Assembly: GCA_965220965.1 (NCBI GenBank)
Contig: OZ244852.1
Coordinates: forward strand, 645,141 to 709,140
Origin: Candidatus Marinacidobacterium sp.
GTDB lineage: Bacteria; Acidobacteriota; Vicinamibacteria; Marinacidobacterales; Marinacidobacteraceae
Reading direction: 5' to 3'
Length of the DNA stretch: 64,000 nt
This document shows positions 10,402-58,233 of the stretch, in pieces. A program made the position numbers and the translations under genes. The notes under the pieces were generated by a model. The model was given only the letters and a program-made list of their open reading frames with translations. It searched no databases and was not told the origin of the DNA. Position 1 is the first letter of the stretch. Each line of letters begins with the position of its first letter.

Positions 10402-10474
10402 GCCTCGGCGGCCCGCCCCGGAAGTCCTCCCGCACCCCGGTTCGGGACCCCGGTTCGGGAGGACTCGGCCGGCC

Positions 10475-12526
10475 TCAGTTGGTTTCGGACGCCGTGGTGC
10501 GGTAGCGCTCGAACCAGGCGAGGATGTTGGCGATCTTGCCGATGAGCTGGCTCGGCCGCCGGCTCATGTCGTGCGAAGCCCCCGGAAGCCGGACCACGCC
10601 GGTGTCGATCCGCCGCATCTTGAGCGCGTGGAAGAGCTGGTACGACTCGGACAGGGGTGTCCTCAGGTCCGCCGACCCGGTCACGATCAGGGTGGGCGTC
10701 GTGATGTTCTCCGCCAGCGAGAGCGGCGAGAACTTCCAGTAGGGGGCCGGGTCCTCCCATGGGAGGCCCTCGTAGCGGCTGTGGAAGTAGCCGTACCAGT
10801 TGTCGGCGGTGAGCGTCTTGCTGATCCAGTTGACCACCGGCTTCTGGGAGACCGCGGCGCGGAACCGGTCCGTCTTGCCGACGATCCAGGCGGTCAGGAT
10901 GCCGCCCGCGCTCCCGCCGGTCACGAAGAGGTTGTCCGGGTCGATGTAGCCGCGGGCGATCACCGCGTCCACCCCCGAGATGACGTCGTCGTAGTCCTCG
11001 CCCGGGTAGTTGTGGTAGAGCAGATCCCCGAACTCCTCGCCGTAGCTGGTGCTGCCCCGGGGGTTCGGGTAGAGGACCACGTATCCGGCGGCCGCCATCA
11101 GCTGCATCTCCGCCGAGAAGCGGTCCCCGTAGTTCGAGATCGGCCCGCCGTGGATTTCGAGGATGAGCGGGTAGCGACGGGCGGGATCGAAGTCGGGCGG
11201 CTTCACGATCCATCCGTGGATCGGGTGGCCGTCGAACGATGAATCCCACCAGATCTCCTCGACTTCGCCGAGCGTTCGCCCGGAGAGGAGGTCCTCGTTG
11301 AGCGCGGTGATCCTCCGGACCTCTCCCCCGGGTCGCCCGAGCGCGACCTCGCCGGGCTGATCGGGGCGGGTCTGGTTCATCGCGAACGAGCCGTCGTTCG
11401 CGACCGAGAACGATCCGCCCCCGTAGGGCCGGCCGTAGGAGGCGCCTCCGAGGTCGCCCGCGAGGACGCTGGTCTCCCCGTCGAGGGTGACGAACCCGAC
11501 CTTCGAGTTGCCGAGGTCGTCGTACTGGAAGTAGACGCCGCTCCCGTCGCGCGCCCACACCGGGGCCGACACGCTCCGGTCGAGGCCCGCCGTCAGCACC
11601 CGCCGCCCGCTGCCGTCGAGGTTCATCACCTCGAGGCGGCGCACCTGGTAGGTGCGCACGCGGTCCTCGTTGCTGATGAAGGCCACGCTCTGTCCGTCAG
11701 GGGAGACGGCCGGGCTCTGGTCCGGTCCGTTGCGATCGGTCAGCGCGCGGATCTCCCCGCCGGCCGCCGGCGCGATGTAGAGCTCGGAGTTGCGGTAGTC
11801 GTAGACCCAGTCGGGCTTGCGGTTCGAGGAGAACACCAGGTTCTGGCTGTCCGGCGTCCAGGCGGCCGGGCTGGCGTGATGGAAGTCCCCGGAAGTCACC
11901 TGGACCGGGGTGCCCCCTTCGGCCGACACCACGAAGAGGTGCTGGAACCCGAAATCCAGGTAACCGACGCCGTCCTGCCGGTTCCGGAAACGGTCCTCGA
12001 GGATCGGCGGGTCGGCCCACTCGGCGCCCGGCGGCGGCCTCGGCGGCGCCGTCAGGCTCGGCGCCGGATGGGGAACGAGCATGTTGAACGCGATGTGGCG
12101 CCCGTCGGGCGACCAGCGGATCGCGCGCGGGGACTCGAGGAGCTGGGTGAGCGTGGTGGTGTCTCCGGTGTCCATCCAGCGCAGTTGAATCTGGCCGTCA
12201 GCGATGTAGGCCAGCCGGTCGCCGCCCGGGGACCAGCGGGGGGTCGTTCCGGCGCCGAGGCGGCGGTGGTCCCCTCCGTCGGCGTTCACGACCCACAGTT
12301 CGCGCCGCTGCCGGTCGCGCTGGATGTCCATCGACGTGCGGACATAGACCACGCGTTCGCCGTCGGGAGAGATCTGCGGGTCGGCCGCGAATTCGAGCTG
12401 GAACACGTCCATCGGCTCGAAATGGCCCGAGGCCTGGCCGGCCGTCTCGGCCGGATGCAACAGCAGGGTCAGCGCCGCCGCGAGCATCCCGGCGGAGAAG
12501 GGCGACAGGCGAGAGAACGTAGACAT
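10475..12526 (-). CDS. S9 family peptidase (acylaminoacyl-peptidase / prolyl oligopeptidase) with N-terminal beta-propeller, secreted
   Basis: Start ATG at 12526 (MSTFSRLSPFSAGMLAAALTLLLHPAETAGQ). SPDG repeat blades. Catalytic serine GGSAGG plus C-terminal Asp/His region of the alpha/beta hydrolase fold. Confidence 0.85.
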   Translation of the reverse strand: MSTFSRLSPFSAGMLAAALTLLLHPAETAGQASGHFEPMDVFQLEFAADPQISPDGERVVYVRTSMDIQRDRQRRELWVVNADGGDHRRLGAGTTPRWSPGGDRLAYIADGQIQLRWMDTGDTTTLTQLLESPRAIRWSPDGRHIAFNMLVPHPAPSLTAPPRPPPGAEWADPPILEDRFRNRQDGVGYLDFGFQHLFVVSAEGGTPVQVTSGDFHHASPAAWTPDSQNLVFSSNRKPDWVYDYRNSELYIAPAAGGEIRALTDRNGPDQSPAVSPDGQSVAFISNEDRVRTYQVRRLEVMNLDGSGRRVLTAGLDRSVSAPVWARDGSGVYFQYDDLGNSKVGFVTLDGETSVLAGDLGGASYGRPYGGGSFSVANDGSFAMNQTRPDQPGEVALGRPGGEVRRITALNEDLLSGRTLGEVEEIWWDSSFDGHPIHGWIVKPPDFDPARRYPLILEIHGGPISNYGDRFSAEMQLMAAAGYVVLYPNPRGSTSYGEEFGDLLYHNYPGEDYDDVISGVDAVIARGYIDPDNLFVTGGSAGGILTAWIVGKTDRFRAAVSQKPVVNWISKTLTADNWYGYFHSRYEGLPWEDPAPYWKFSPLSLAENITTPTLIVTGSADLRTPLSESYQLFHALKMRRIDTGVVRLPGASHDMSRRPSQLIGKIANILAWFERYRTTASETN

Positions 12527-12663
12527 CGGATGACTCCTGGGCGGGCGGGTCGGGACGGGCGAGTCCCGAAGCGGCGTTTCCGGTTCGCAGATCATGACCG
12601 AACCGGGTCAGGGAGATCCCGGCCGCACCCGGAACCGCCGGCGCTCGGTACACTGGCGCCACC

Positions 12664-14085: not shown

Positions 14086-14797
14086 GGGCGCCGCGCTGCG
14101 GGAGGCCGGCGAGACGGCTTCGGCGAGCGAGGGCCTGATCGTTCGCGGGCTCGTCAAGGACTACGCCGGGCCCGGAGGCCTGCTGCGGGTGCTCGACGGC
14201 GTCGACCTCGAGGCCGGTCCCGGGGAGGCGCTCTCGATCATGGGAGCGTCGGGCTGCGGCAAGAGCACGCTCCTCTTCCTGCTGGGGGCGATCGAGTCGC
14301 CCTCCGACGGGGAGGTGCGTCTCGCCGGGGTGGACCCTCACGAACTGGATCCTGACGAGCAGGCCCGGTTCCGGCGCGACGAGGTGGGGTTCGTGTTCCA
14401 GGACCACTGCCTCCTTCCCCAGTGCACCGCGCTCGAGAACGTGCTCACCCCGACTCTTCCCGACCCGCGGCCCGGCGACCGGGACCGCGCGGTGGAGCTC
14501 CTCGACCGGGTGGGGCTGTCGGCGCGCCGCGACCATCTGCCGGCGGAGCTCTCCGGGGGCGAGAAACAGCGGGTCGCGATCGCGCGCGCGCTCGTGCGGC
14601 GACCGGGCCTCCTGCTGTGCGACGAGCCCACCGGGAACCTCGACGGGGAGGCGGCGGCCCGCGTCGCCGAACTGCTGGTGGATCGCGGCGCGGTGGGCGC
14701 GGGATGCATCGTGGTTCTGGTGACCCATGATCCGGGCCTGGGCGCCCGCTTCGACCGGGGTTACCGCATGGAGCGCGGCCGGCTCAAAGCCGCCTGA
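14048..14797 (+). CDS. ABC transporter ATP-binding protein (LolD/MacB-type)
   Basis: Walker A GASGCGKST, signature LSGGEKQRVAIARAL, Walker B LLLCDEPTGNLD. Listed start overlaps the ALDH gene by 38 nt; a downstream start is possible. Confidence 0.85.
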   Translation: MSSTAPAPSRAPEGAALREAGETASASEGLIVRGLVKDYAGPGGLLRVLDGVDLEAGPGEALSIMGASGCGKSTLLFLLGAIESPSDGEVRLAGVDPHELDPDEQARFRRDEVGFVFQDHCLLPQCTALENVLTPTLPDPRPGDRDRAVELLDRVGLSARRDHLPAELSGGEKQRVAIARALVRRPGLLLCDEPTGNLDGEAAARVAELLVDRGAVGAGCIVVLVTHDPGLGARFDRGYRMERGRLKAA

Positions 14798-14809
14798 GGG
14801 ACGGCGCGG

Positions 14810-17800
14810 ATGGCCCGGGGTTCCGCAGACGTCGTCCGGCCGGCCCTGCGGGGTCTGATCCACTACCGGCGCGGGCACCTCCTCGTCGCCGCCGCCACCG
14901 CGGTTGCGGCGGCAGTTCTCGTCGGAGCGCTCGCGGTGGGCGATTCGGTCCGGGGCAGCCTCCGCGCCGTCTTCACCGAGCGGCTGGGAGAGGCCGACTT
15001 CGCGGTCCTCCCGCGCCATCCGTTCTCCGACGATCCGGCGACCGGGCTCGCGGCGCGGTTGGCGTCGCAACTCGAGCGGGAAGCTCCCGGATGGTTCGAG
15101 TCGCCGGCGCCGGCGCTGCGGCTCATGGGCGCGGTGTTTCTCCCGGACGGAGCTCCGGAGGCCGTCACCGTGTTCGGCGTCGACGACCGATATTTCGCGC
15201 TTCACCGGGTTCCGGGGCCGGTCTCGCCGGGCGCCGTCCGGGTGAGCCCCGGGCTGGCGCTTCAGGGCATCGAGCCCGGCGACTCGCTGCTGATCCGGGT
15301 GGACGGCGTCTCCGGGATCGCCTCGGCGTCGTTCTTCGGAGACAAGGGCGCCTCCGCGCTCACGTTCCGCCGCACGGTGGAGGCCTGGGCCGAGCCCCGT
15401 CCCGGCCCCGCCTCGGGCGGGTTCTCGCTGTTCCCGGTCCAGGGACCGGTGCGAGCCGTCTTTCTGCCGCTCGGCGAGCTTCGCGCGCTCCTCGACGAGG
15501 ACTTCGGGGGGCCGCCCCGGGCCAACGCGCTCCTATTCCGGGCCGCCGGCGCGGCTGGCGCCGGGGACGAGGGAGAGGCGGTGCTGGCCGCCGCCCTCGA
15601 TGCGACCGCCTCGCTGGACGACCGCGGGCTCGGACTGCGCCGGGGCGAGTCCGGCGACCTGGTGCTGGAGAGCCGGAGCCTCGCGCTCGCCGACCACGAG
15701 GTGGACGGGGCGGTCCGCGCCGCCGAGGCCCGGGGACTTCGGGCAGCGCCGGTGCTTACCTGGCTCGCGACCTCGATGGCGGCGAACGGACGCGAGACTC
15801 CGTATTCGCTGGTGGCCGGGCTTCCCGAGGGCTGGTTCCCTCCGGACGACGACCCCGGCGATGTTCTGCTCCCCGGGCCCTGGCTCACCGAGGATCTCGA
15901 CCTAACCGGGGGCGACGCGATCGAGGTGTCCTACCTTGTTTGGGACGAGGCGGGACGGTTCGAGGCCGCCGCCGCCTCGCTGCCGGTGGGGCCGGGGGTC
16001 GCCCTCGACGGGGTGTTCCGCGATACCACCCTGGCCCCGGAGTTGCCCGGCGTCACCGACTCGGCGCGGATGGGCGACTGGGACCCGCCGTTTCCGCTGG
16101 ACCTGAGCCGGATCCGGGACCGGGACGAAGAGTACTGGGACGACTTCGGCGCGCTTCCGAAGGCGTTCGTGCCCTACGCCACCGCGCGGCGCCTCTGGGA
16201 GATGCGACAGGGGAGCGCAACATCTGTCAGGTTCCGGAGCGAGGGGAGCGCGTCTCTGGATCCCCTCCCGCTCGAAGAATCGCTCGTGGCGGAGCTTCCC
16301 GCCGCCGACTTCGGGCTCGCTCCGGTCGCGGTGCGGGCGCAGGGGCTCGAGGCCTCCCGGGGCGCGACCGACTTCGGGATCTATTTCCTCTACTTCTCGT
16401 GGTTCCTGCTGGTCTCGGCGTTCGTTCTCATCGCCCTGCTGTTCCGGCTGGGGATCGAGCGGCGGCTGCGGGAGATCGGCCTCCTGCTCGCCTGCGGCTG
16501 GCCGCCGAAGCGGGTCTCGCGGACGCTCCTCCTCGAGTCCCTGATCGTCGCCACTGTCGGCGTCGTGGTGGGTTCGGCGCTCGGCCTTCTCTATGCCCGG
16601 GGCATGGTGGGGCTTCTCTCCGGCGTGTGGGGGGGCGCGGTGACCGGGACGCTCGCCGCCTCCGACGGAGGGGCGGAGGCGCCGCTTCAGCTCTTCGTGA
16701 GCTGGGGTTCGGTCACCATGGGGGCGCTGGGCGCGCTCGAGATGGCCCTGATCGCCGCCTGGTGGACCACCCGGCGGCTCGTAAGACTCCCCCCGCGACC
16801 CCTCCTCGCCGGGAGCCTGCCGACCAGCGACGCGGCCGGCCCGCTCCCGGCGCCCGATCCCGGACGCCGCGCGCGTCGGCTGGCCGTCGGTCTCGCGGTC
16901 GTCGGCGTCGGCCTCGCGGGGGCGGCCGCGGCCGGGATCGTTCCGGAGACGGGCGGTTTCTTCGGAGCGGGGTCGGCGCTGCTCGCGGCCGGGCTCGCCG
17001 CCGGCTGGCGGCGCCTGGTGGCCGCCGGGGCCGGAGGCGCGCTCGCCGGGTTGCGGGAACTCGCTTTCCGGGCGGCCGGTTTCCGCCCGGGCCGAAGTCT
17101 CGCCGCCATGGCGCTGGTGGCCTTCGCGGCCTTCACCCTGGTCGCGGTGGAGTCGTTCCGCAAGCAGTCGGGCGCCGGTGGTCTGCCCGAAGGCGTCGGC
17201 GGGGTCCTTGCGCTCACCGAGACGGTGCTGGGGGCGCCGTGGGACCCGACGACCGCCGAGGGGCAGGAGGCGCTCAACCTGCCGGCCGGCCTCGAAGGGT
17301 TCCGGGTGAGCCCGCTTCGTCTCGCCGGCCACGAGGACGCCAGTTGTCTCAATCTCTACCGCCCGGCGCGGCCGCGGGTGCTGGGCGTCCCCCCGACGCT
17401 GCGCGAGGAGAACCGGTTCCCGTTCGCGGCGCACATGGGCGAGACCGCGGCGGAGACCGCGAATCCCTGGCGCCTCCTCGAGCGCGCGCGGGCGCCCTCG
17501 GACCCCATCCCGGTGATCGGCGACCAGAACTCGATGACGTACGTCCTCAAGTGGCCGGTCGGCGAGGAGCGTTCCTACCCCATCGGGGACGGGGGCGCTC
17601 CGGTCCGGTTGCGGCTGGTGGCGACGCTTTGGGACAGCCTCTTCCAGGGGGAGCTGCTGATGGCGGAGGAGGATCTGCTGGACTCGCTGCCGGTCGAGGA
17701 CGGCTACCGCATGTTCCTGGTGGACCGGCCCGGCGAGGTCCCGGTCGGCGCCGAGGCGCTCGCTGCGGCGGAGTCCGCAGCCACGGCGCTCCTCGCCGAT

Positions 17801-18253
17801 GCGCTCTCGGACTACGGAGCGGCCTCCACCGCCGCCCGCGCCCGGCTCGAGAGCTTCCACCAGGTGGAGAACACTTACCTCTCCACCTTCCAGGCGCTCG
17901 GCGGCCTCGGGCTCCTGCTCGGAACGCTGGGGCTCGGCGCGGTGCTCCTGCGGAACGCCGACGAGCGGAAGAAGGAGTGGGCGCTGCTCGCGGCGGCGGG
18001 CTACCGGCGGCGCGACTTCGCTTCGCTCGGTTTCTGGGAGAACGCGCTCCTCCTCCTCGCCGGCGTCGGGGTCGGCGCCGGCGCGGCCATCGTCTCGGTC
18101 CTCCCGGTGCTCGGCCAGCGGGGCGCCGGCGGGAGTCTCGGGCTCCTCGCCGTTCTCCTCTCCGGGATCGTGGCGTTCGGCCTGCTCACCGGCGCGCTCG
18201 CCGCCCGCCGCGCCGCCACCCGACCCATCCTCCCGGCGCTCCGCGCCGAGTGA
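14810..18253 (+). CDS. FtsX-like ABC transporter permease with duplicated MacB_PCD/FtsX modules (1147 aa)
   Basis: Two FtsX-type 4-TM blocks, each preceded by a large extracytoplasmic domain. Follows the ATPase by 12 nt. The alternative 1139-aa ORF in another frame is R/G-rich junk. Confidence 0.8.
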   Translation: MARGSADVVRPALRGLIHYRRGHLLVAAATAVAAAVLVGALAVGDSVRGSLRAVFTERLGEADFAVLPRHPFSDDPATGLAARLASQLEREAPGWFESPAPALRLMGAVFLPDGAPEAVTVFGVDDRYFALHRVPGPVSPGAVRVSPGLALQGIEPGDSLLIRVDGVSGIASASFFGDKGASALTFRRTVEAWAEPRPGPASGGFSLFPVQGPVRAVFLPLGELRALLDEDFGGPPRANALLFRAAGAAGAGDEGEAVLAAALDATASLDDRGLGLRRGESGDLVLESRSLALADHEVDGAVRAAEARGLRAAPVLTWLATSMAANGRETPYSLVAGLPEGWFPPDDDPGDVLLPGPWLTEDLDLTGGDAIEVSYLVWDEAGRFEAAAASLPVGPGVALDGVFRDTTLAPELPGVTDSARMGDWDPPFPLDLSRIRDRDEEYWDDFGALPKAFVPYATARRLWEMRQGSATSVRFRSEGSASLDPLPLEESLVAELPAADFGLAPVAVRAQGLEASRGATDFGIYFLYFSWFLLVSAFVLIALLFRLGIERRLREIGLLLACGWPPKRVSRTLLLESLIVATVGVVVGSALGLLYARGMVGLLSGVWGGAVTGTLAASDGGAEAPLQLFVSWGSVTMGALGALEMALIAAWWTTRRLVRLPPRPLLAGSLPTSDAAGPLPAPDPGRRARRLAVGLAVVGVGLAGAAAAGIVPETGGFFGAGSALLAAGLAAGWRRLVAAGAGGALAGLRELAFRAAGFRPGRSLAAMALVAFAAFTLVAVESFRKQSGAGGLPEGVGGVLALTETVLGAPWDPTTAEGQEALNLPAGLEGFRVSPLRLAGHEDASCLNLYRPARPRVLGVPPTLREENRFPFAAHMGETAAETANPWRLLERARAPSDPIPVIGDQNSMTYVLKWPVGEERSYPIGDGGAPVRLRLVATLWDSLFQGELLMAEEDLLDSLPVEDGYRMFLVDRPGEVPVGAEALAAAESAATALLADALSDYGAASTAARARLESFHQVENTYLSTFQALGGLGLLLGTLGLGAVLLRNADERKKEWALLAAAGYRRRDFASLGFWENALLLLAGVGVGAGAAIVSVLPVLGQRGAGGSLGLLAVLLSGIVAFGLLTGALAARRAATRPILPALRAE

Positions 18254-18292
18254 GGGCGGGACCCGGGCGTACGATTCAGCAGCGGAGCCTTC

Positions 18293-19558
18293 ATGGCATA
18301 TCCCGCGCCGTCCCGCAGCCGGTCCGAAGTGGACCGCGCGGGCGAGGTTCTGGCCGGGCCCAGGGACGAGGGGTGCGCTGCGGCGCGTCAGGTGGCCAGC
18401 GACTGGCGGGCCGCGCACGCCTACCCGCTGCTCGCGCTCCGGAAGCTTCTGGCGCGGAGGGCGCGCGAGGCCGACCCCGACGGCGACAGCCTGGTGGCGC
18501 TGCGACGTAACGGCCTGTTGGCGAAGTCCCGTGCAGCGCCGAGAGCGGTGAGGCGCCCGTCCGACAAGGCGCGTGAGCGAGGAATATCGGGAATATTCCG
18601 AGCGAAACGGAACGATGAGCGCCCCGAAGGGGCGCGGTTCGGGCGGGATGCATCGCCGCTCGAACGCCGCGTGACTTTGTCAATAGGCCGTTGAGCGACT
18701 GGTCTCGGTGGAGGCCAAGCTCCGGCGGTTCTCCGGGATGCGGCTCTCCCGGATGCAGGACCTCGGCGGCTGCCGCGCCATCCTCTCCGATGTGGGGAGC
18801 GTGGACCGGCTGGTCCGGATCTACGCGGACCGGCGGCAGAGCCACGATCTGGTCAGGAGCGACGACTACATCGCGGAACCCAAGGCCGATGGATACCGGG
18901 GCGTCCACCTGGTCTACCGCTACCGCTCGCGGAGCGACGCCGGCGCCGTCTGGAACGGCCTGCGGATCGAGGTGCAGATGCGCTCGAGGCTCCAGCACGC
19001 CTGGGCCGCCGCGGTCGAGACCGTGGATGCGATCCGGGGTACGCGGCTCAAACGGGGGGGCCGGGCAACGGCCGCTGGGACCGGTTCTTCGCGCTCATGG
19101 GCAGCGTCCTGGCGATCCGGGAGAGGAGGCCAGCGGTTCCGGGAACGCCCACCGCCCTCGCGGAACTCCGGGACGAGGCGACGACGCTCGAACGGGAGCT
19201 GGGGGTCATGTCCACGCTGCTGACGCTGGGCGTGGCGGTTCACCGCGTGGATCGGGTTGCTGGACTCATCAGGGACTTTCGCCGGGTGGCCGCCTGGTAC
19301 CTGCTGACAGTCGATTCCCGGACCGCCACGACCTCGGTCCGCGGCTATGGCGCGACGGCGTTCGAGGACGCGCGCGCCGAGTACCTTCGCCGCGAGGAAC
19401 AGCATCGGGACAGCCCCGGGATTCAGGTCTGCCTGGTCTCCACGACCTCCGCCGAGGCGCTGCGAAGGGCCTATCCCAACTACCATCTCAATTCGCAGGA
19501 CTTCCTGGGCGCGGTCGCCGAGCTGTACGAGCGGGGATCCCGGAGGGTTGGCCCGTGA
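18293..19558 (+). pseudogene. RelA/SpoT-domain protein (small alarmone synthetase-like), disrupted by a 193-bp insertion and a +1 frameshift in a G7 tract
   Basis: The N-terminal piece (18293-18506) carries the conserved SEVDRAGEVL and WRAAHAYPL motifs. Removing 18507-18699 restores the reading ...SLVALRLVSVEAKLRRFSGMRLSRMQDLGGCRAIL. The synthetase core GYRGVHLVYRY...RIEVQMRS..QHAWA lies in the 18708-19223 frame. The true continuation KRGGPGNGRWDRFFALMGSVLAIRE is in the 19097-19558 frame and requires one extra G in the GGGGGGG run at 19054-19060. Confidence 0.7.
18507..18694. mobile_element. MITE-like 188-bp non-autonomous insertion with 14-bp imperfect terminal inverted repeats and a 5-bp target-site duplication (GCGAC)
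   Basis: Direct repeat GCGAC at 18502-18506 and 18695-18699. Ends GTAACGGCCTGTTG and its inverse TCAACGGCCTATTG match at 11 of 14 positions. Internal palindrome GGAATATTCC. Local GC is clearly below the 70% background. Excising the insert plus one repeat copy (193 bp, 1 mod 3) restores the host ORF in frame. Confidence 0.55.
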
Positions 19559-53209: not shown

Positions 53210-54977
53210 TTGGGTCGCCACCATCCGGCGGCGACTCGGACTGCTCCACTATGCGCTGCTGATCGTGGCGGCGCTGCTCGGGCTGCGCTTCTGGAACCTG
53301 CAGATCGTGCGCGGCGACGAGTTCGCCGAGATCGCGCGCCACAACTACCTGCGCAGTGAGCGCCTGAGAGCCCCCCGGGGACTCGTTCTGGATCGGAAGG
53401 GAAGGACCCTCGCGGAAAGCGAGCCCTCGTTCGCGCTGATCGCCGACGCCCCGGGCATCGCCCGCCTCGAGGAACTCGGAGCGCTGCCGGATGCGGACGC
53501 CGGGGAGCTCGACGCGCTCCGGAGGCGCGCCGCTCGCGGGCCGGCCGTCGTGCGGACCGGCCTCGACTTCGAGGAGGTCGCTTACCTCGACGCCCGCCGC
53601 AGCGACCTGCCGGGGGTGCAGGTCGACTTCATTCCGGTCCGGCGATACCCGCTGGGGGCCGCAACCGCCCACCTGCTCGGCTACGCCGCGGAAGTCACCC
53701 CCGCGCAACTGCTGCTGGAGGAGTTCGTCGCCGCCTCGGACGGCGACATCGTCGGGCACACCGGGGTCGAGCGGGCGTACAACACGCTGCTTTCGGGCGT
53801 GGACGGGCAAGTCGACCTGATCGTCGACAGCCGGGAGCGGATCCGCGGCGGGCCCGGGGTGCGGGCCACCGACCCCGTCCGCGGCGGCACTCTGCGGCTC
53901 AGCGTGAGCGGCGCGCTTCAGGAGGCGGCGCTCGCGGCGTTCGGCGAGGAGAGCGGCGCCTTCGCCGCGCTCGACATCGCGACGGGAGCCATCCTGGGGC
54001 TCGGGAGCTATCCCGCCGAGGACCCGACGCTCTTTCGTCGCGACGCCAGCGTGTTCCGCGAACTGCTCCGCCACCCGCGGACCCCGCTTCTGAACCGGGC
54101 GATCCAGGGCGGATTCCCGCCGGGCTCCGGGTTCAAGCTCATCACCGCGGCGGCGGCGCTCGCCGAGGGCGTGGTGGACGAGGACCACCGCGTCAACTGC
54201 ACCGGCCGGACCAGGGTCGGGGGCCGCACCTTCCATTGCCACCGCACTGATGGGCACGGAGAGGTGAACCTTCTGAGGGCGCTCGCCGAGTCGTGCAACG
54301 TCTACTTCTACCGGATCGCGTCGCAGATGGATGTCGACGTCCTCGCCGGGTATGCGCGCGCGTTCGGCCTTGGCGCGCCCACCGGGGTGGACCTCCTGGG
54401 TGAAGTCTCCGGCCTCGTTCCGACGAGGGAGTGGAAGCGGGAGACCTACGGAGAGCGCTGGTACCCGAGCGAGACCGCCTCGGTCGCGGTCGGACAGGGG
54501 GCGATGGTCGTGACGCCACTGCAGATGGCGCGGGTCGTCGCCGCCATCGCCTCCGGGGGAAGACTCCTCAGCCCGGGCCTCACCGAGCCCGGCCCCGCCG
54601 GCGTCGTGGAGGGGATCGCTCCGGAACACCTCGAACTGATCCGGGCCGGCATGCGCGAGGCGGTGCTCAGCGGAACCGCGGCGCGCGCCCGGATCCCGGG
54701 GTTTGCGGCGGCCGGCAAGACCGGGACGGCGCAGGTCGCGAGCGCCGAGCGGGTGGCGGATGAGAACGAGGACCGTCCCTGGGAGTTCCGCACCCACGCC
54801 TGGTTCCTGGGGTTCGCGCCGTATGAGGATCCGGAGATCGCGATCGCGGTCCTGGTGGAGCACGGCGGGGCGGGCTCTTCGGCGGCCACCCCGATCGGCC
54901 GGGAGATCCTGACGACGTGGCGGGACGAGCGGAGTTCCGGCGAGGGGGGCGCGGTTGATCTCGCTGCGGCCCGCTGA
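53196..54977 (+). CDS. mrdA: Penicillin-binding protein 2 (peptidoglycan D,D-transpeptidase MrdA)
   Basis: PBP dimerisation domain. SxxK (GSGFK), SxN (SCN), KTG (KTGTAQ) transpeptidase motifs. Confidence 0.9.
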   Translation: MLRSDWVATIRRRLGLLHYALLIVAALLGLRFWNLQIVRGDEFAEIARHNYLRSERLRAPRGLVLDRKGRTLAESEPSFALIADAPGIARLEELGALPDADAGELDALRRRAARGPAVVRTGLDFEEVAYLDARRSDLPGVQVDFIPVRRYPLGAATAHLLGYAAEVTPAQLLLEEFVAASDGDIVGHTGVERAYNTLLSGVDGQVDLIVDSRERIRGGPGVRATDPVRGGTLRLSVSGALQEAALAAFGEESGAFAALDIATGAILGLGSYPAEDPTLFRRDASVFRELLRHPRTPLLNRAIQGGFPPGSGFKLITAAAALAEGVVDEDHRVNCTGRTRVGGRTFHCHRTDGHGEVNLLRALAESCNVYFYRIASQMDVDVLAGYARAFGLGAPTGVDLLGEVSGLVPTREWKRETYGERWYPSETASVAVGQGAMVVTPLQMARVVAAIASGGRLLSPGLTEPGPAGVVEGIAPEHLELIRAGMREAVLSGTAARARIPGFAAAGKTGTAQVASAERVADENEDRPWEFRTHAWFLGFAPYEDPEIAIAVLVEHGGAGSSAATPIGREILTTWRDERSSGEGGAVDLAAAR

Positions 54978-56076
54978 ACGCCCCTCCCCCCGACGGACCG
55001 ATGTCGGGCTGCTGCTCTCGGCGTCGCTGCTCACGCTCGTCTCGATCGTCGTCCTCTACAGCGTGCTGGTCGGCGGCGCGGAAGCGGCGACCTTCACCGA
55101 CCACGTCACCCGGATCGTCCTCGCGGCGGGCGTGGCGGCCGCCGCGTACTGGATGGACCACCGCGTGCTGGCGCGACTGTCGCCGCTGCTGTTCGGGCTG
55201 GCGCTGGCGCTTGCGGCCTACGCCAACGTGGCCGCGGCGCTCCGCGCCGGGACCCGGCGCTGGCTGGACATCGGCGCGATCACGCTTCAGCCGGGGGAAA
55301 TGGCCAAACTGGCCCTGGTCCTCCTCCTGGCCCACCTGATCGGTCGATCCGGCCACGAGCCGCTGAGCCGGCGCGCCAAGGTGGGCTGGTTCGTGGCCGC
55401 CGCGGCGCTGGTGCTCGCGGTGGCGGCGCAGCCGGATCTCGGCAGCGCGGCCATCCTGGTGGGTGTCGGGGCCGGCATGGTCTTTCTGGGGGGGCTCCGG
55501 CTCTCCCGCCGGCTGGTCGCCTGGGCGGTGGCGGGAGGGCTCGCCGCCGCGCCGCTGCTCTGGACGTTCGGGCTGCGCGACTACCAGCGCGCCCGCGTGC
55601 TCGCGTTCCTGAGCCCGGACAGCGACCCCCTAGGCGCGGGGTACCAATCGCTCCAGGCCTCCGTCGCGGTGGGTTCGGGCGGGTTCTGGGGGGCGGGCTG
55701 GATGCGGGGATCCCAGACCGCCTACGAGTTCCTGCCAGCGCCCCACACCGACTTCGTGTTCGCGGTGATGGCCGAGGAGTTCGGCTTTGTGGGCGTCGCC
55801 CTGGTGCTCGGGCTCTACGTCTGGCTGGGGCTGCGGCTGCTGGCGATCGCGATAGCCGCCGTGGACAACCACGACCCCACCGGTGCGCTGATCGTCGGCG
55901 GGCTCTTCCTGATGCTCCACCTCCAGGCGGTCTACAACATCGCGATGGTGGCGGGGCTGGTTCCGATCAAGGGGTTTCCGTTGCCGCTGATGAGCTACGG
56001 AGGCAACTCGCTGCTCGTCACCGGGGCGGCGATCGGCCTCGCGGCCTCGGTCAACCGGAGGAAGTGGCTGTCCTGA
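54955..56076 (+). CDS. rodA: Rod shape-determining protein RodA (SEDS family)
   Basis: FtsW/RodA/SpoVE signature (GFPLPLMSYGGNSLL). TTG start, uncertain. Overlaps mrdA by 23 nt. Confidence 0.9.
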   Translation: MISLRPAERPSPRRTDVGLLLSASLLTLVSIVVLYSVLVGGAEAATFTDHVTRIVLAAGVAAAAYWMDHRVLARLSPLLFGLALALAAYANVAAALRAGTRRWLDIGAITLQPGEMAKLALVLLLAHLIGRSGHEPLSRRAKVGWFVAAAALVLAVAAQPDLGSAAILVGVGAGMVFLGGLRLSRRLVAWAVAGGLAAAPLLWTFGLRDYQRARVLAFLSPDSDPLGAGYQSLQASVAVGSGGFWGAGWMRGSQTAYEFLPAPHTDFVFAVMAEEFGFVGVALVLGLYVWLGLRLLAIAIAAVDNHDPTGALIVGGLFLMLHLQAVYNIAMVAGLVPIKGFPLPLMSYGGNSLLVTGAAIGLAASVNRRKWLS

Positions 56077-56099
56077 CCCGGTTCTGACGCAAACGGACC

Positions 56100-56640
56100 G
56101 CGACGCGCCTCCCGGTCCGGCGCGCCGTGCGCCGCCCGGAAGGGGCCGCCCCCCAGAAATCGAAGCCGTGCGACGCGCAGGTCAGCGTGGCTGTCGTAGC
56201 GCAACGCCCGTCCCCGGGGGGAGGGTTCGGGAGGGGGTTTCCCCCTCCCGAGAGAGAAAGTCCGCTTCATCGTGACTTGACGCGGAGCGCAAGTCACGAT
56301 GACGGCCCGGAGGGCCGTGCGGTGCGAGCGGCGGGGCGGCGGGTGGCGCTCGGAAGGAGGGCGCCCGGGGCTCGGGACGGCCGCCCCGCCGCTCGCACCG
56401 CGTGGATTCGAGGCGGAGGGCTCGGGAGGGGGTGTCCCCCTCCCGCAAATTAGTAATTTCGAATCGGAAACTCGCGCGCAGCGCAGTTTTCGATTCACGG
56501 CCCGGAGGGCCGTGCGTAGGGCGGGGAGGGCCGCCCCCCAGAAATCGAAGCATTGCGATGCGCATGCCGGAGCGGCCCCTCCCGCCCTACGCCCAGCTCC
56601 CCCGTGCTAGGTTTTTGGGCTGGGAGACCCGAGCCTGGCT
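56100..56640. repeat. Structured repeat-rich spacer: two ~205-bp tandem units plus flanking direct repeats, each unit carrying GC-perfect hairpins
   Basis: Perfect palindromes GGGAGGGGG-TTT/TGT-CCCCCTCCC at about 56220 and 56424. A second hairpin follows each (CATCGTGACTTG..CAAGTCACGATG at 56259-56292, and CGAATCGGAAACT..AGTTTTCGATTC at about 56459-56496). A conserved 19-mer CGG(C/T)CCGG(AGG/CGC)GCCGTGCG occurs at about 56113, 56293 and 56498. A 38-mer GGGCCGCCCCCCAGAAATCGAAGC..TGCGA..CGCA occurs at about 56142 and 56528. Local AT-rich islands. Confidence 0.6.
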
Positions 56641-56676
56641 TTGGCCGCAACGGCCCGGTTCCCCGAAGTCGCCGCC

Positions 56677-58233
56677 GTGGTCCGTGAACTGATCGTCACC
56701 AGTCTGCCCGGCGAGACGCGCATGGCGCTGCTCGAGGACGGGGCGATCGTCGAACTCGGCGTCGAGCACCGGTCCGGGCAGAGCGTCCTTCACGGCATCT
56801 ATCGGAGTCGCGTCCAGCGCGTTGTCCCCGGGACCCAGGCGGCCTTCCTCGACCTGGGCCTGCACCGGAACGGCTTCCTCCAGACGGACCAGATCCCTCC
56901 GGGGGCTGTCGAGGATTCGAGCGGGCAGGGCGAAGGACGGTCCGCCGGCGCCCGCCCCCGACTCGAGGAGCTTCTCAAACCCGGACAGACAGTCCTCGTC
57001 CAGGTCGTGCGGGAGCCGCTCGGCCCCAAGGGCTACAAGGTCAGTTGCGATCTGCGCCTGCAGGGACGGTTCTTCGACTTTCGTCCGTTCGCTCCGGAGG
57101 GCGCCATCGTCAACCGCGCCACCGCGGGTCCCAGGGAGCAGTTGCGACTGGCCGCGCTGGTGCGACGCCGCACCGAGACGAAGGGGGAGTGGGCGGCGCG
57201 TCCGGCGGCCGAACAGATCGATGAAGAGACGCTGGCGGCCGATATCGCCCGGATCGAGGCGGACTGGGCCGACATCCGCAGGCAGGGCGCCGAGGGCCCT
57301 CCGTCCTGCCTGCGATCCGAAGTGCCCATGGTGTTCCGCTACGTCCGGGACGTTCTGGCCTCGGGATTCGACAGCATCCGGGTGGACGACGAGCGGCTCT
57401 ACGGGCGCCTGCTCAACTTCGTGCGCCAGTTTCTTCCCGGTCTGGAGCACCGGATCCGCTTCTACTCGCGGAACTACCCGATCTTCCAGGAATATGGCGT
57501 GGAAGAGGCCTTCCGCCAGGCGACCCGGCGACGGGTGAAGCTCCCCTCCGGGGGCTCCATCGTGATCGACCAGACCGAGGCGCTGGTCGCGGTGGATGTG
57601 AACACCGGGAGTTTCGGGGGCGAGACGAGCCGGCGCGACGAGACGAACACCGCCACGAATCTCGAAGCCGCCGCCGAGACCGCGCGCCAGCTTCGTCTGC
57701 GCGGGCTGGGCGGGATCGTGGCGATCGATTTCATCGACATGAAGGAGGCGCGCAACCGGGACCGGGTCTACCGCGCGCTCCAGTCGCACCTCAAGAAGGA
57801 TCCGGCCTTCACCCGGGCCTCGCCCCCCGAGCCCCGGGCCGGGCTCGTCATCGTGACCCGCAAGCGCGAGCGGCCGTCGCTCGAGGCGGTCCTGCTGTCC
57901 GCCTGCGCGGTCTGCCGCGGGACGGGCAAGGTCGCTTCCGCTGGGGCGGTCTGCCAGGAAATCCTGACCCGCGTCCAGAAGCGCGCCCGCGAGTTCGCAT
58001 CGGGGCTGAACATCGAGGCGGCGCCTGAACTGGCCGCGGCGCTCCGGCGCTCCGGAGTGCTCCCCGAGATCGCCGGGATGCTCGCCGGACCGGTCCAGGT
58101 CCATGACGACCCCAACCTCGCCGAGCCCCGCTACGTCCTGGCGTCTCCCGCGGAGTCTCCGGACGGACTCGAGGAACTGGACGCATCCGCCGTGGTCGGC
58201 GAGCCCGAGGAATCGGCCGCTCCGGTGGCCTGA
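56677..58233 (+). CDS. rng: Ribonuclease G/E family (RNase G-like)
   Basis: S1 domain followed by the RNase E/G catalytic domain (VDVNTGSFGGETS, GLGGIVAIDFIDM). Start placed at GTG 56677 (VRELIVTSLPGETRMALLEDG matches RNase G N-termini). The listed TTG 56641 lies inside the repeat region. Confidence 0.8.
   Translation: MVRELIVTSLPGETRMALLEDGAIVELGVEHRSGQSVLHGIYRSRVQRVVPGTQAAFLDLGLHRNGFLQTDQIPPGAVEDSSGQGEGRSAGARPRLEELLKPGQTVLVQVVREPLGPKGYKVSCDLRLQGRFFDFRPFAPEGAIVNRATAGPREQLRLAALVRRRTETKGEWAARPAAEQIDEETLAADIARIEADWADIRRQGAEGPPSCLRSEVPMVFRYVRDVLASGFDSIRVDDERLYGRLLNFVRQFLPGLEHRIRFYSRNYPIFQEYGVEEAFRQATRRRVKLPSGGSIVIDQTEALVAVDVNTGSFGGETSRRDETNTATNLEAAAETARQLRLRGLGGIVAIDFIDMKEARNRDRVYRALQSHLKKDPAFTRASPPEPRAGLVIVTRKRERPSLEAVLLSACAVCRGTGKVASAGAVCQEILTRVQKRAREFASGLNIEAAPELAAALRRSGVLPEIAGMLAGPVQVHDDPNLAEPRYVLASPAESPDGLEELDASAVVGEPEESAAPVA

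Follow-up and report, generated by a model that had tools for sequence, protein, structure and literature searches.

What occupies the spacer of about 600 bp that separates rodA from rng, the genes for a SEDS-family cell-shape protein and for RNase G, in a Candidatus Marinacidobacterium genome? The DNA analysed here, referred to throughout as the window, is a stretch of 64,000 nucleotides in whose coordinates all positions are given, loci from other sources being denoted by L and a number. An original prediction, made from the letters of the window, had noted an array of palindromic repeats in this spacer and offered three explanations: a cluster of extragenic palindromes of the repetitive extragenic palindrome (REP) or bacterial interspersed mosaic element (BIME) type, a structured autoregulatory leader for RNase G, or one or more small RNAs (sRNAs). 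Our preferred answer, to which we assign a probability of about 0.6, is a cluster of palindromic extragenic modules, specific to this lineage and resembling BIMEs or tandem REPINs (REP doublets forming hairpins). The spacer is indeed, as proposed, the longest non-coding stretch of the window, the 558 nt from 56053 to 56610 being the longest run without a coding signal as judged by codon-position GC content (the runner-up measures 317 nt), and the open reading frames (ORFs) that run through the array, which match neither a Pfam family nor any homologue, are probably spurious, as suspected. The extent first given, 56090-56680, holds for the array as far as 56602; its remainder takes in approximately 75 nt of conserved sequence upstream of rng.

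The complete array (56090-56602, like all its parts on the + strand) comprises 2.6 tandem copies, i.e. two full and one partial and degenerate, of a 195-bp unit in which four hairpins follow one another in the order Z, W, X and a long hairpin with a 21-22-bp stem; when folded separately, each unit gives four consecutive hairpins. The motifs X, Y, Z and W had been placed correctly, in the order X1-Y1...Z1-W1-X2...Z2-W2-X3-Y2, by the original prediction, which overlooked the 195-bp register, a 22-bp inverted repeat and the position of Y2 at the apex of the second long hairpin. Z, with the form GGGAGGGGG-TNT-CCCCCTCCC and a stem of 9-12 bp, is preceded by GGnGGAGGGYTC and occurs at 56229-56249 and 56424-56444, where shuffled sequences lead one to expect 0 matches. 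In W, a 12-13-bp stem is interrupted by a bulge of 1 nt and ends in a conserved tip, CGC-GnA-GCG; X (ACGGCCC-GGA-GGGCCGT) has a 7-bp stem closed by a GGA loop.

The first full unit, U1 (56217-56411, 195 nt), begins with a G-rich flank and the Z1 hairpin (56217-56250) and continues through an A-rich linker, the W1 hairpin (56267-56302) and the X2 hairpin (56302-56318, followed by GCG) to a long hairpin whose arms, 56319-56340 and 56380-56401, pair perfectly over 22 bp and form the longest inverted repeat in the window. U2 (56412-56602) repeats this arrangement: its flank and the hairpin of Z2 (56412-56445) are joined by an AT-rich linker (56446-56460) to the hairpin of W2 (56461-56496), after which come that of X3 (56497-56513, again with GCG behind it) and a long hairpin whose 21-bp arms occupy 56514-56534 and 56572-56592 and whose apical part is Y2 (56528-56565). 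The AT-rich island previously pointed out is present, at 56446-56472, and the 12-bp stem ascribed to W is accurate for W2 (56461-56472 with 56485-56496, including one G.T pair), the stem of W1 (56267-56279 with 56290-56302) being in fact a perfect 13 bp. The degenerate partial unit, U0 (56110-56216), retains X1 (56112-56131) and Y1 (56143-56180), no longer has a 3' arm to its long hairpin, and is 77% identical over 82 nt to 56495-56576. As a separate observation, the segment 56217-56237, which joins the G-rich flank to the 5' arm of Z1 (GGGGGAGGGTTCGGGAGGGGG), contains four runs of three or more G separated by loops of 1-3 nt, which is the canonical motif of a G-quadruplex and would be in competition with the Z1 hairpin; Z2 has only three such runs.

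The units are mosaics. The 195-bp register is exact, both from Z1 to Z2 and from X2 to X3, and within it U1 and U2 agree at 31 of 34 positions of the Z region and at all 20 of X (56302-56321 and 56497-56516; X1 matches at 14 of 20), whereas the W slot is approximately 20% identical, the level of random sequence, yet 52 nt long in both, and the slot of about 90 nt that follows X is unrelated in sequence between the two. Y is common to U0 and U2 (35 of 38 positions identical, with an exact 24-nt core), and X to U1 and U2. The long hairpins span 83 and 79 nt, and the arms of this slot differ wholly from unit to unit (GCGGTGCGAGCGG... versus GCGTAGGGCGGGG... versus GGTTCGGGAGGGG...).

Comparison with relatives indicates how the array is placed. 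The gene order mreBCD-PBP2-rodA-rng-HATPase-inositol phosphatase is kept across the relatives and the window, and in seven of those relatives (L003-L007, L126, L130) the rodA-rng spacer measures 75-131 bp and carries no array. The additional DNA in the window is bounded by CCCGGTTCYGAC at its left end and by CGTGCTAGGTTT at its right, both of which match the ends of these short spacers; the first 13 nt of the window's spacer, CCCGGTTCTGAC (56077-56089, +), form a remnant of the ancestral spacer that is common to L003, which reads TGACCCGGTTCCGAC at this point (alignment A1). Since the first 13 nt and CGTGCTAGGTTT correspond to short-spacer ends, the approximately 510 bp between them are, on this alignment, a lineage-specific insertion upstream of a conserved rng element, and the ancestral spacer as reconstructed from the relatives would have been about 100 bp long with none of the modules in it. 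Four further relatives (L001, L127, L128, L134) have spacers of approximately 250-370 bp that hold different palindromic inserts, that of L001 showing no similarity to the window array, so that the rodA-rng spacer is, by this comparison, one that repeatedly accepts palindromic DNA.

The conserved element that marks the right boundary, CGTGCTAGGTTT (56603-56614, +), lies outside the array, between it and rng. All lineages examined (L001, L003-L007, L126-L128, L134) have it, in the form CGTGCTA(G/C)GKTT, some 55-75 nt ahead of the rng start; it resembles an extended -10 element (TGnTAGGTT in the window, TGnTAnnnT in general), and the short leader downstream of it contains a hairpin. It is probably the rng promoter or another cis-acting element. 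These data bear directly upon the proposal that the array serves as a structured 5' leader through which RNase G would be autoregulated, by analogy with the rne 5' untranslated region (UTR). The array is highly structured and stands immediately upstream of rng, as do the structured regions preceding genes of the RNase E/G family that are described by the rne 5'UTR (RF00040) and rne-II (RF01756) models, and a search with the latter returned a faint match (E 1.3; 11.6 bits, where the gathering threshold is 50). Unlike those leaders, however, the array has no significant match, is unconserved, being missing in every relative examined, including the seven with the same gene order and short spacers, and is separated from rng by the conserved box, CGTGCTAGGTTT and some 65 nt intervening before the rng start in all lineages. 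A second copy of the unit, described below, furthermore lies between convergent genes and precedes no gene. The leader proposal is accordingly very improbable.

That second copy is evidence for a dispersed repeat. In a relative represented by L126 and L132, whose RNase G is 70% identical, a 937-bp gene-free region separates the inositol-phosphatase gene from a convergent minus-strand gene, and within it L126:6019-5824 (-), approximately 196 nt, displays the same hairpin syntax as the window unit: a hairpin of G and C runs comes first, then an A-rich linker and a W-like hairpin (GCATCGGAACTTGC...GCAAGGAAGTTTCGATGC) tipped by CGCG...GCGC, next an X-like hairpin (CTGGCGC-GAA-GCGCCGG) with GCG after it, and last a long hairpin (GGTTCGGGAGGGGGGG ... 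CCCCCCCTCCCGGAAC). When Z1-W1-X2 and Z2-W2-X3 were aligned locally to L126:5790-6780, the z values were 5.2 and 4.3, and 0 of 150 shuffled sequences reached the scores obtained. In a search of 156 kb of DNA from relatives, a covariance model trained solely on the window's two full units (R2) matched L132:12894-13019(-) over its full length, with 53 bits and an E value of 2e-10. The L132 unit lies 12 nt past the stop codon of the inositol-phosphatase gene, and the orthologous site in L130, an 84%-identical relative, measures only 45 bp, from which it follows that this copy is likewise lineage-specific; its situation between convergent genes means that the unit cannot in general be a gene leader. 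Judged by this recurrence, the unit is a repeat family spread among related Acidobacteria-like genomes and is not specific to one locus. The nearness of both loci to rng is a sampling artefact.

Among the three full units, 98% of cells pair and 11 pairs have changed on both sides, a result that none of 500 shuffles reached and that drops sharply in slid controls. Such covariation could be read as selection on RNA, i.e. the 195-nt unit might be a functional structured RNA, whether a family of sRNAs or a cis-acting 3'UTR or intercistronic module, for instance one that binds RNase E/G or blocks exonucleases. Four hairpins preserved in each of three units in this way would fit that proposal, as would the very stable folding of the region (the 584-nt spacer lies well below dinucleotide shuffles, at -365 kcal/mol and z -8.1 on the + strand and z -9.4 on the - strand), the presence of both known loci near rng, and the published observation that elements of REP type frequently give rise to transcripts and function as RNA (PMC3733652). 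The G.U pairs, about 5 versus 1, favour the sense strand of rodA and rng, a bias that is not significant and is too weak for strand assignment, as is the overall GC skew of +0.013. Against this, the two strands fold equally well, and the proximity to rng reflects DNA fetched around that gene. In REPINs, what is preserved is length and the ability to form a hairpin, and the hairpins often show compensatory changes (PMC3116915); two-sided changes are thus equally expected of DNA palindromes, and the covariation in the array is no evidence for an RNA gene.

Signals of an independent transcript are likewise lacking. Neither promoter-like nor terminator-like sites, intrinsic terminators (a GC-rich hairpin with a T run) among them, were found on either strand between 55900 and 56900, and the region contains no tRNA or tmRNA gene. 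Rfam gave zero matches to the array at gathering thresholds; the candidates admitted at E-value thresholds, which we rejected, were spurious microRNA hairpin models, the best scoring, together with the rne-II match given above. The array is moreover missing from all orthologous spacers, and the L126 copy from the 84%-identical relative. The original prediction had itself named absence or lack of conservation of the spacer in close relatives as telling against it, which is the situation found, and both the leader and the sRNA proposals fail on this point, the latter having gained no positive support. We therefore regard a functional structured RNA as unlikely. A related proposal, that the unit is a mobile, transcribed RNA module which might, for example, recruit or block RNase E/G or 3' exonucleases, strikes us as rather unlikely too; if it were true, its spread and tandem amplification next to rng would rewire the expression of the cell-shape operon and RNase G in the lineage. 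Integron attC sites, CRISPR, retron non-coding RNA and type III antitoxin repeats were also considered and dropped, their associated genes being absent nearby and their architecture a poor fit.

The preferred account, a cluster of extragenic palindromes, may be compared with systems that have names. Most REPs are situated 3' of genes, where the ORFs on either side are unidirectional or convergent, and one end of the palindrome bears an unpaired tag, GTAG or CGTC (PMC3733652). The array has the signature of palindromic clusters in that it is lineage-specific, recurs at unrelated sites, is tandem and mosaic, lies downstream of unidirectional or convergent genes and is free of promoter and terminator motifs. 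X and Z are short imperfect palindromes of REP size (20-40 nt) in a non-coding spacer. As with BIMEs, which in enterobacteria are clusters of REP or palindromic units, the array is extragenic, situated 3' of a gene in a unidirectional pair and present or absent between related genomes, and short conserved GC-rich palindromes (X and Z) alternate with motifs in fixed-length slots to give a composite unit in tandem. In contrast to BIMEs, whose units alternate in orientation, its modules are all direct, as are the asymmetric flanks, GGnGGAGGGYTC before Z and GCG after X; its 'linkers' are long hairpins of unrelated sequence; BIMEs are present in high copy in their own genome, whereas this unit is known from one locus in the window and from one relative; and the array has neither the conserved tag nor a known RAYT (REP-associated tyrosine transposase) gene.

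A further parallel in architecture is offered by the REPIN clusters of Pseudomonas fluorescens SBW25, in which a hairpin unit and its flanks are repeated in tandem with a period of 184 bp (195 bp here) to form arrays of several hundred bp, with pairing and hairpin length kept by compensatory changes (PMC3116915); the long hairpins of the window array, at 83 and 79 nt, are REPIN-sized. Those clusters differ, nevertheless, in that their units are nearly identical, whereas the units here are mosaic. Pneumococcal BOX elements are MITE-like (miniature inverted-repeat transposable element), modular, intergenic and variable in module number, have a stable predicted structure and are possibly co-transcribed with neighbouring genes. 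The array is also modular, intergenic, stably folding and possibly co-transcribed with its neighbours; unlike BOX, neither it nor its unit has terminal inverted repeats or a target-site duplication, and the sequences are unrelated. Because the expectations as to tag, orientation, hairpin arms and terminal inverted repeats fail, we place the array beside REP and BIME; it is REP/BIME-like and belongs to no named family. The first of the three explanations originally offered is hence the best supported, by the insertion, by the recurrence of the unit and by the other palindromic families set out below, but not as membership of REP in the strict sense.

Several observations weigh against this interpretation and account for our reserve. 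The GTAG/CGTC tag is not conserved, the sequences that follow the X stem in the three units being GCGGTG, GCGTAG and GCGGTT, with GTAG in U2 only. A REPIN has two conserved, inverted REPs around a variable spacer; here it is the arms that vary between units and the flanking X and Z that are conserved. No terminal inverted repeat or target-site duplication is discernible at 56089/56090, at 56602/56603 or around the L126 unit, and no transposase was found among the approximately 15 window ORFs scanned with Pfam. Only three full units are available in total, and since the relatives' DNA was all fetched around rng, the second locus was sampled with bias. X, Y, Z and W have no further copy in the 64-kb window by exact and near-exact search and by short-word BLAST; a 20-mer of Y met one chance match in JGI metagenomes, on an AT-rich contig, and viral contigs matched neither Y nor X; and a six-frame translation of the array found nothing among 5.8 billion proteins, a search for which single modules are too short.

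The lack of further copies in the window, in protein space and in the metagenome scan for Y is also what a purely local origin would predict, in which slippage would have duplicated a hairpin-rich spacer, quasipalindrome template-switching would have perfected its stems, and there would be neither family nor function. Both the exact 195-bp register and the perfect 13-bp and 22-bp stems accord with such a history. It leaves unexplained, however, the full homologous unit at a different locus in another genome; uniform neutral divergence cannot yield 100% identity in X and 91% in Z beside approximately 20% in W; and the ancestral spacer, as reconstructed above, offered no modules to duplicate. 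We hold a local origin to be quite improbable.

Should the array be a cluster of extragenic palindromes, the following course of events may be envisaged. A unit would have inserted into a spacer that was short and permissive, at a point flanked by the stop codon of rodA and the conserved rng box, and would then have been amplified and recombined locally to 2.6 tandem copies, with X and Z remaining near-identical between copies and the W and long-hairpin slots keeping length and pairing and not sequence. The array probably forms the 3' tail of the transcript that carries mreBCD, PBP2 and rodA, in which case its roughly ten GC-rich stem-loops would be expected to block 3' exonucleases or read-through while rng would keep its own upstream element. 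Mobilisation by a Y1/HUH-type enzyme through a single-stranded DNA intermediate is a guess suggested by the hairpin architecture and by a weak G.T strand bias.

The wider setting is one in which such elements abound. Intergenic regions of L132 measure 337-937 bp as against 45-185 bp in L130 and contain modules present in multiple copies at separate sites. We observe that four of them (L132:12812-13749, 14522-14859, 15620-16112 and 17680-18433) are 3- to 20-fold larger than those of L130 and carry 71-nt tandem repeats with CAGTTCTCCCGGTGGGGGCTCGGC, 7 copies at two sites, together with other shared modules; an IMG/VR viral contig (L133:4467-4484) has one exact match to the relatives' repeat motif CCCCACCGGGAGAACTGG. 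A further, MITE-like family of approximately 200-230 bp, bounded by the inverted repeats CAGSCTGTGG...CCACAGSCTG, occurs in relatives at L001:5631-5850, L127:2781-2960, L126:6290-6749(-), L128:12866-13029, L134:1919-2149 and L134:5248-5465, with additional sites at L128:1975, L128:5282, L130:5173, L130:18867 and L132:18137-18295. It repeatedly adjoins stop codons (TAG|CAGCC, TGA|CAGCC), comprises at least two subfamilies that differ in their hairpin core, and has an outer stem that covaries between L001 and L127, whose RNase G proteins are 67% identical. This family is absent from the window, and the window unit has a marginal similarity to the MITE core of L134 (z at most 2.9), on which no conclusion here depends. 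Taken together, the repeats catalogued in these genomes mean that the clade carries several families of dispersed palindromic mosaics, from one of which the window array appears to be built.

Searches also extended beyond the clade. A scan of genome contigs with the Z palindrome returned at least 117 stretches, unrelated taxa (Methanoculleus, Desulfovibrionaceae and others) being among the matches listed, and Z alone is too simple to make a useful probe. Together with its GGAGGG-NYC 5' flank, the Z core recurs at scattered sites in Desulfovibrionaceae and Methanoculleus, frequently where contigs end (L008-L124), and there the flank matches that of window Z1 at 11 of 12 positions; the consensus in Desulfovibrionaceae is GGGAGGGTCCGGGAGGGGGTNACCCCCTCCCGGCCGCCGGAGGCAT and the Methanoculleus sequence GGGGGAGGGTCCGGGAGGGGGTGTCCCCCTCCCGG, with examples at L013:4406, L064:764 and L078:3470. 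In the 100 Z-scan loci searched with a further model, R1, only the Z part was matched, and X and Y are absent from all loci recovered by the scan. Such dispersal speaks for a palindromic repeat; the resemblance itself is probably a convergence on a simple palindrome of a G run and a C run. A blastn comparison of the array with plasmids and phages found nothing.

The genes on either side are conventional. By Pfam, the neighbourhood reads PBP2, RodA and an RNase E/G protein, followed by a HATPase-domain gene and an inositol monophosphatase gene. rodA occupies 54955-56076 (+; PF01098, E 1e-83), with a TGA stop codon at 56074-56076 and an uncertain start, its 373-residue product being equal in length to the relatives' RodA. 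rng extends over 56677-58233 (+; PF10150, E 1e-68) and its product is 100% identical to P0001; translation likely starts at GTG 56677, which aligns with the starts in relatives, the public database entry beginning instead at TTG 56641. The RNase G protein places the source in an Acidobacteria-like lineage represented solely by metagenome assemblies, the nearest relatives having RNase G 81% and 76% identical to that of the source. Elsewhere in the window, a 19-bp imperfect inverted repeat (AGTCCTCCCGCACCCCGGT / ACCCCGGTTCGGGAGGACT, 10423-10465), terminator-like and unrelated to the array, directly follows a minus-strand S9 peptidase gene (10475-12595), on the downstream side of its stop codon.

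If the interpretation preferred here is right, what fills the window's longest non-coding stretch is repetitive palindromic DNA and not a regulatory leader, and the ORFs called through it are artefacts, which is chiefly a result for annotation. It would add a previously undescribed composite repeat unit from an Acidobacteria-like clade that is uncultured and little studied and whose intergenic regions are rich in mosaic palindromic elements. Elements of this sort break assemblies and seed false gene calls, and variation in the copy number of the unit could be used as a strain marker. They can also alter mRNA stability and the coupling of genes within operons, and the genes that would be affected in this manner here are those of the mre/rodA cell-shape system together with RNase G.

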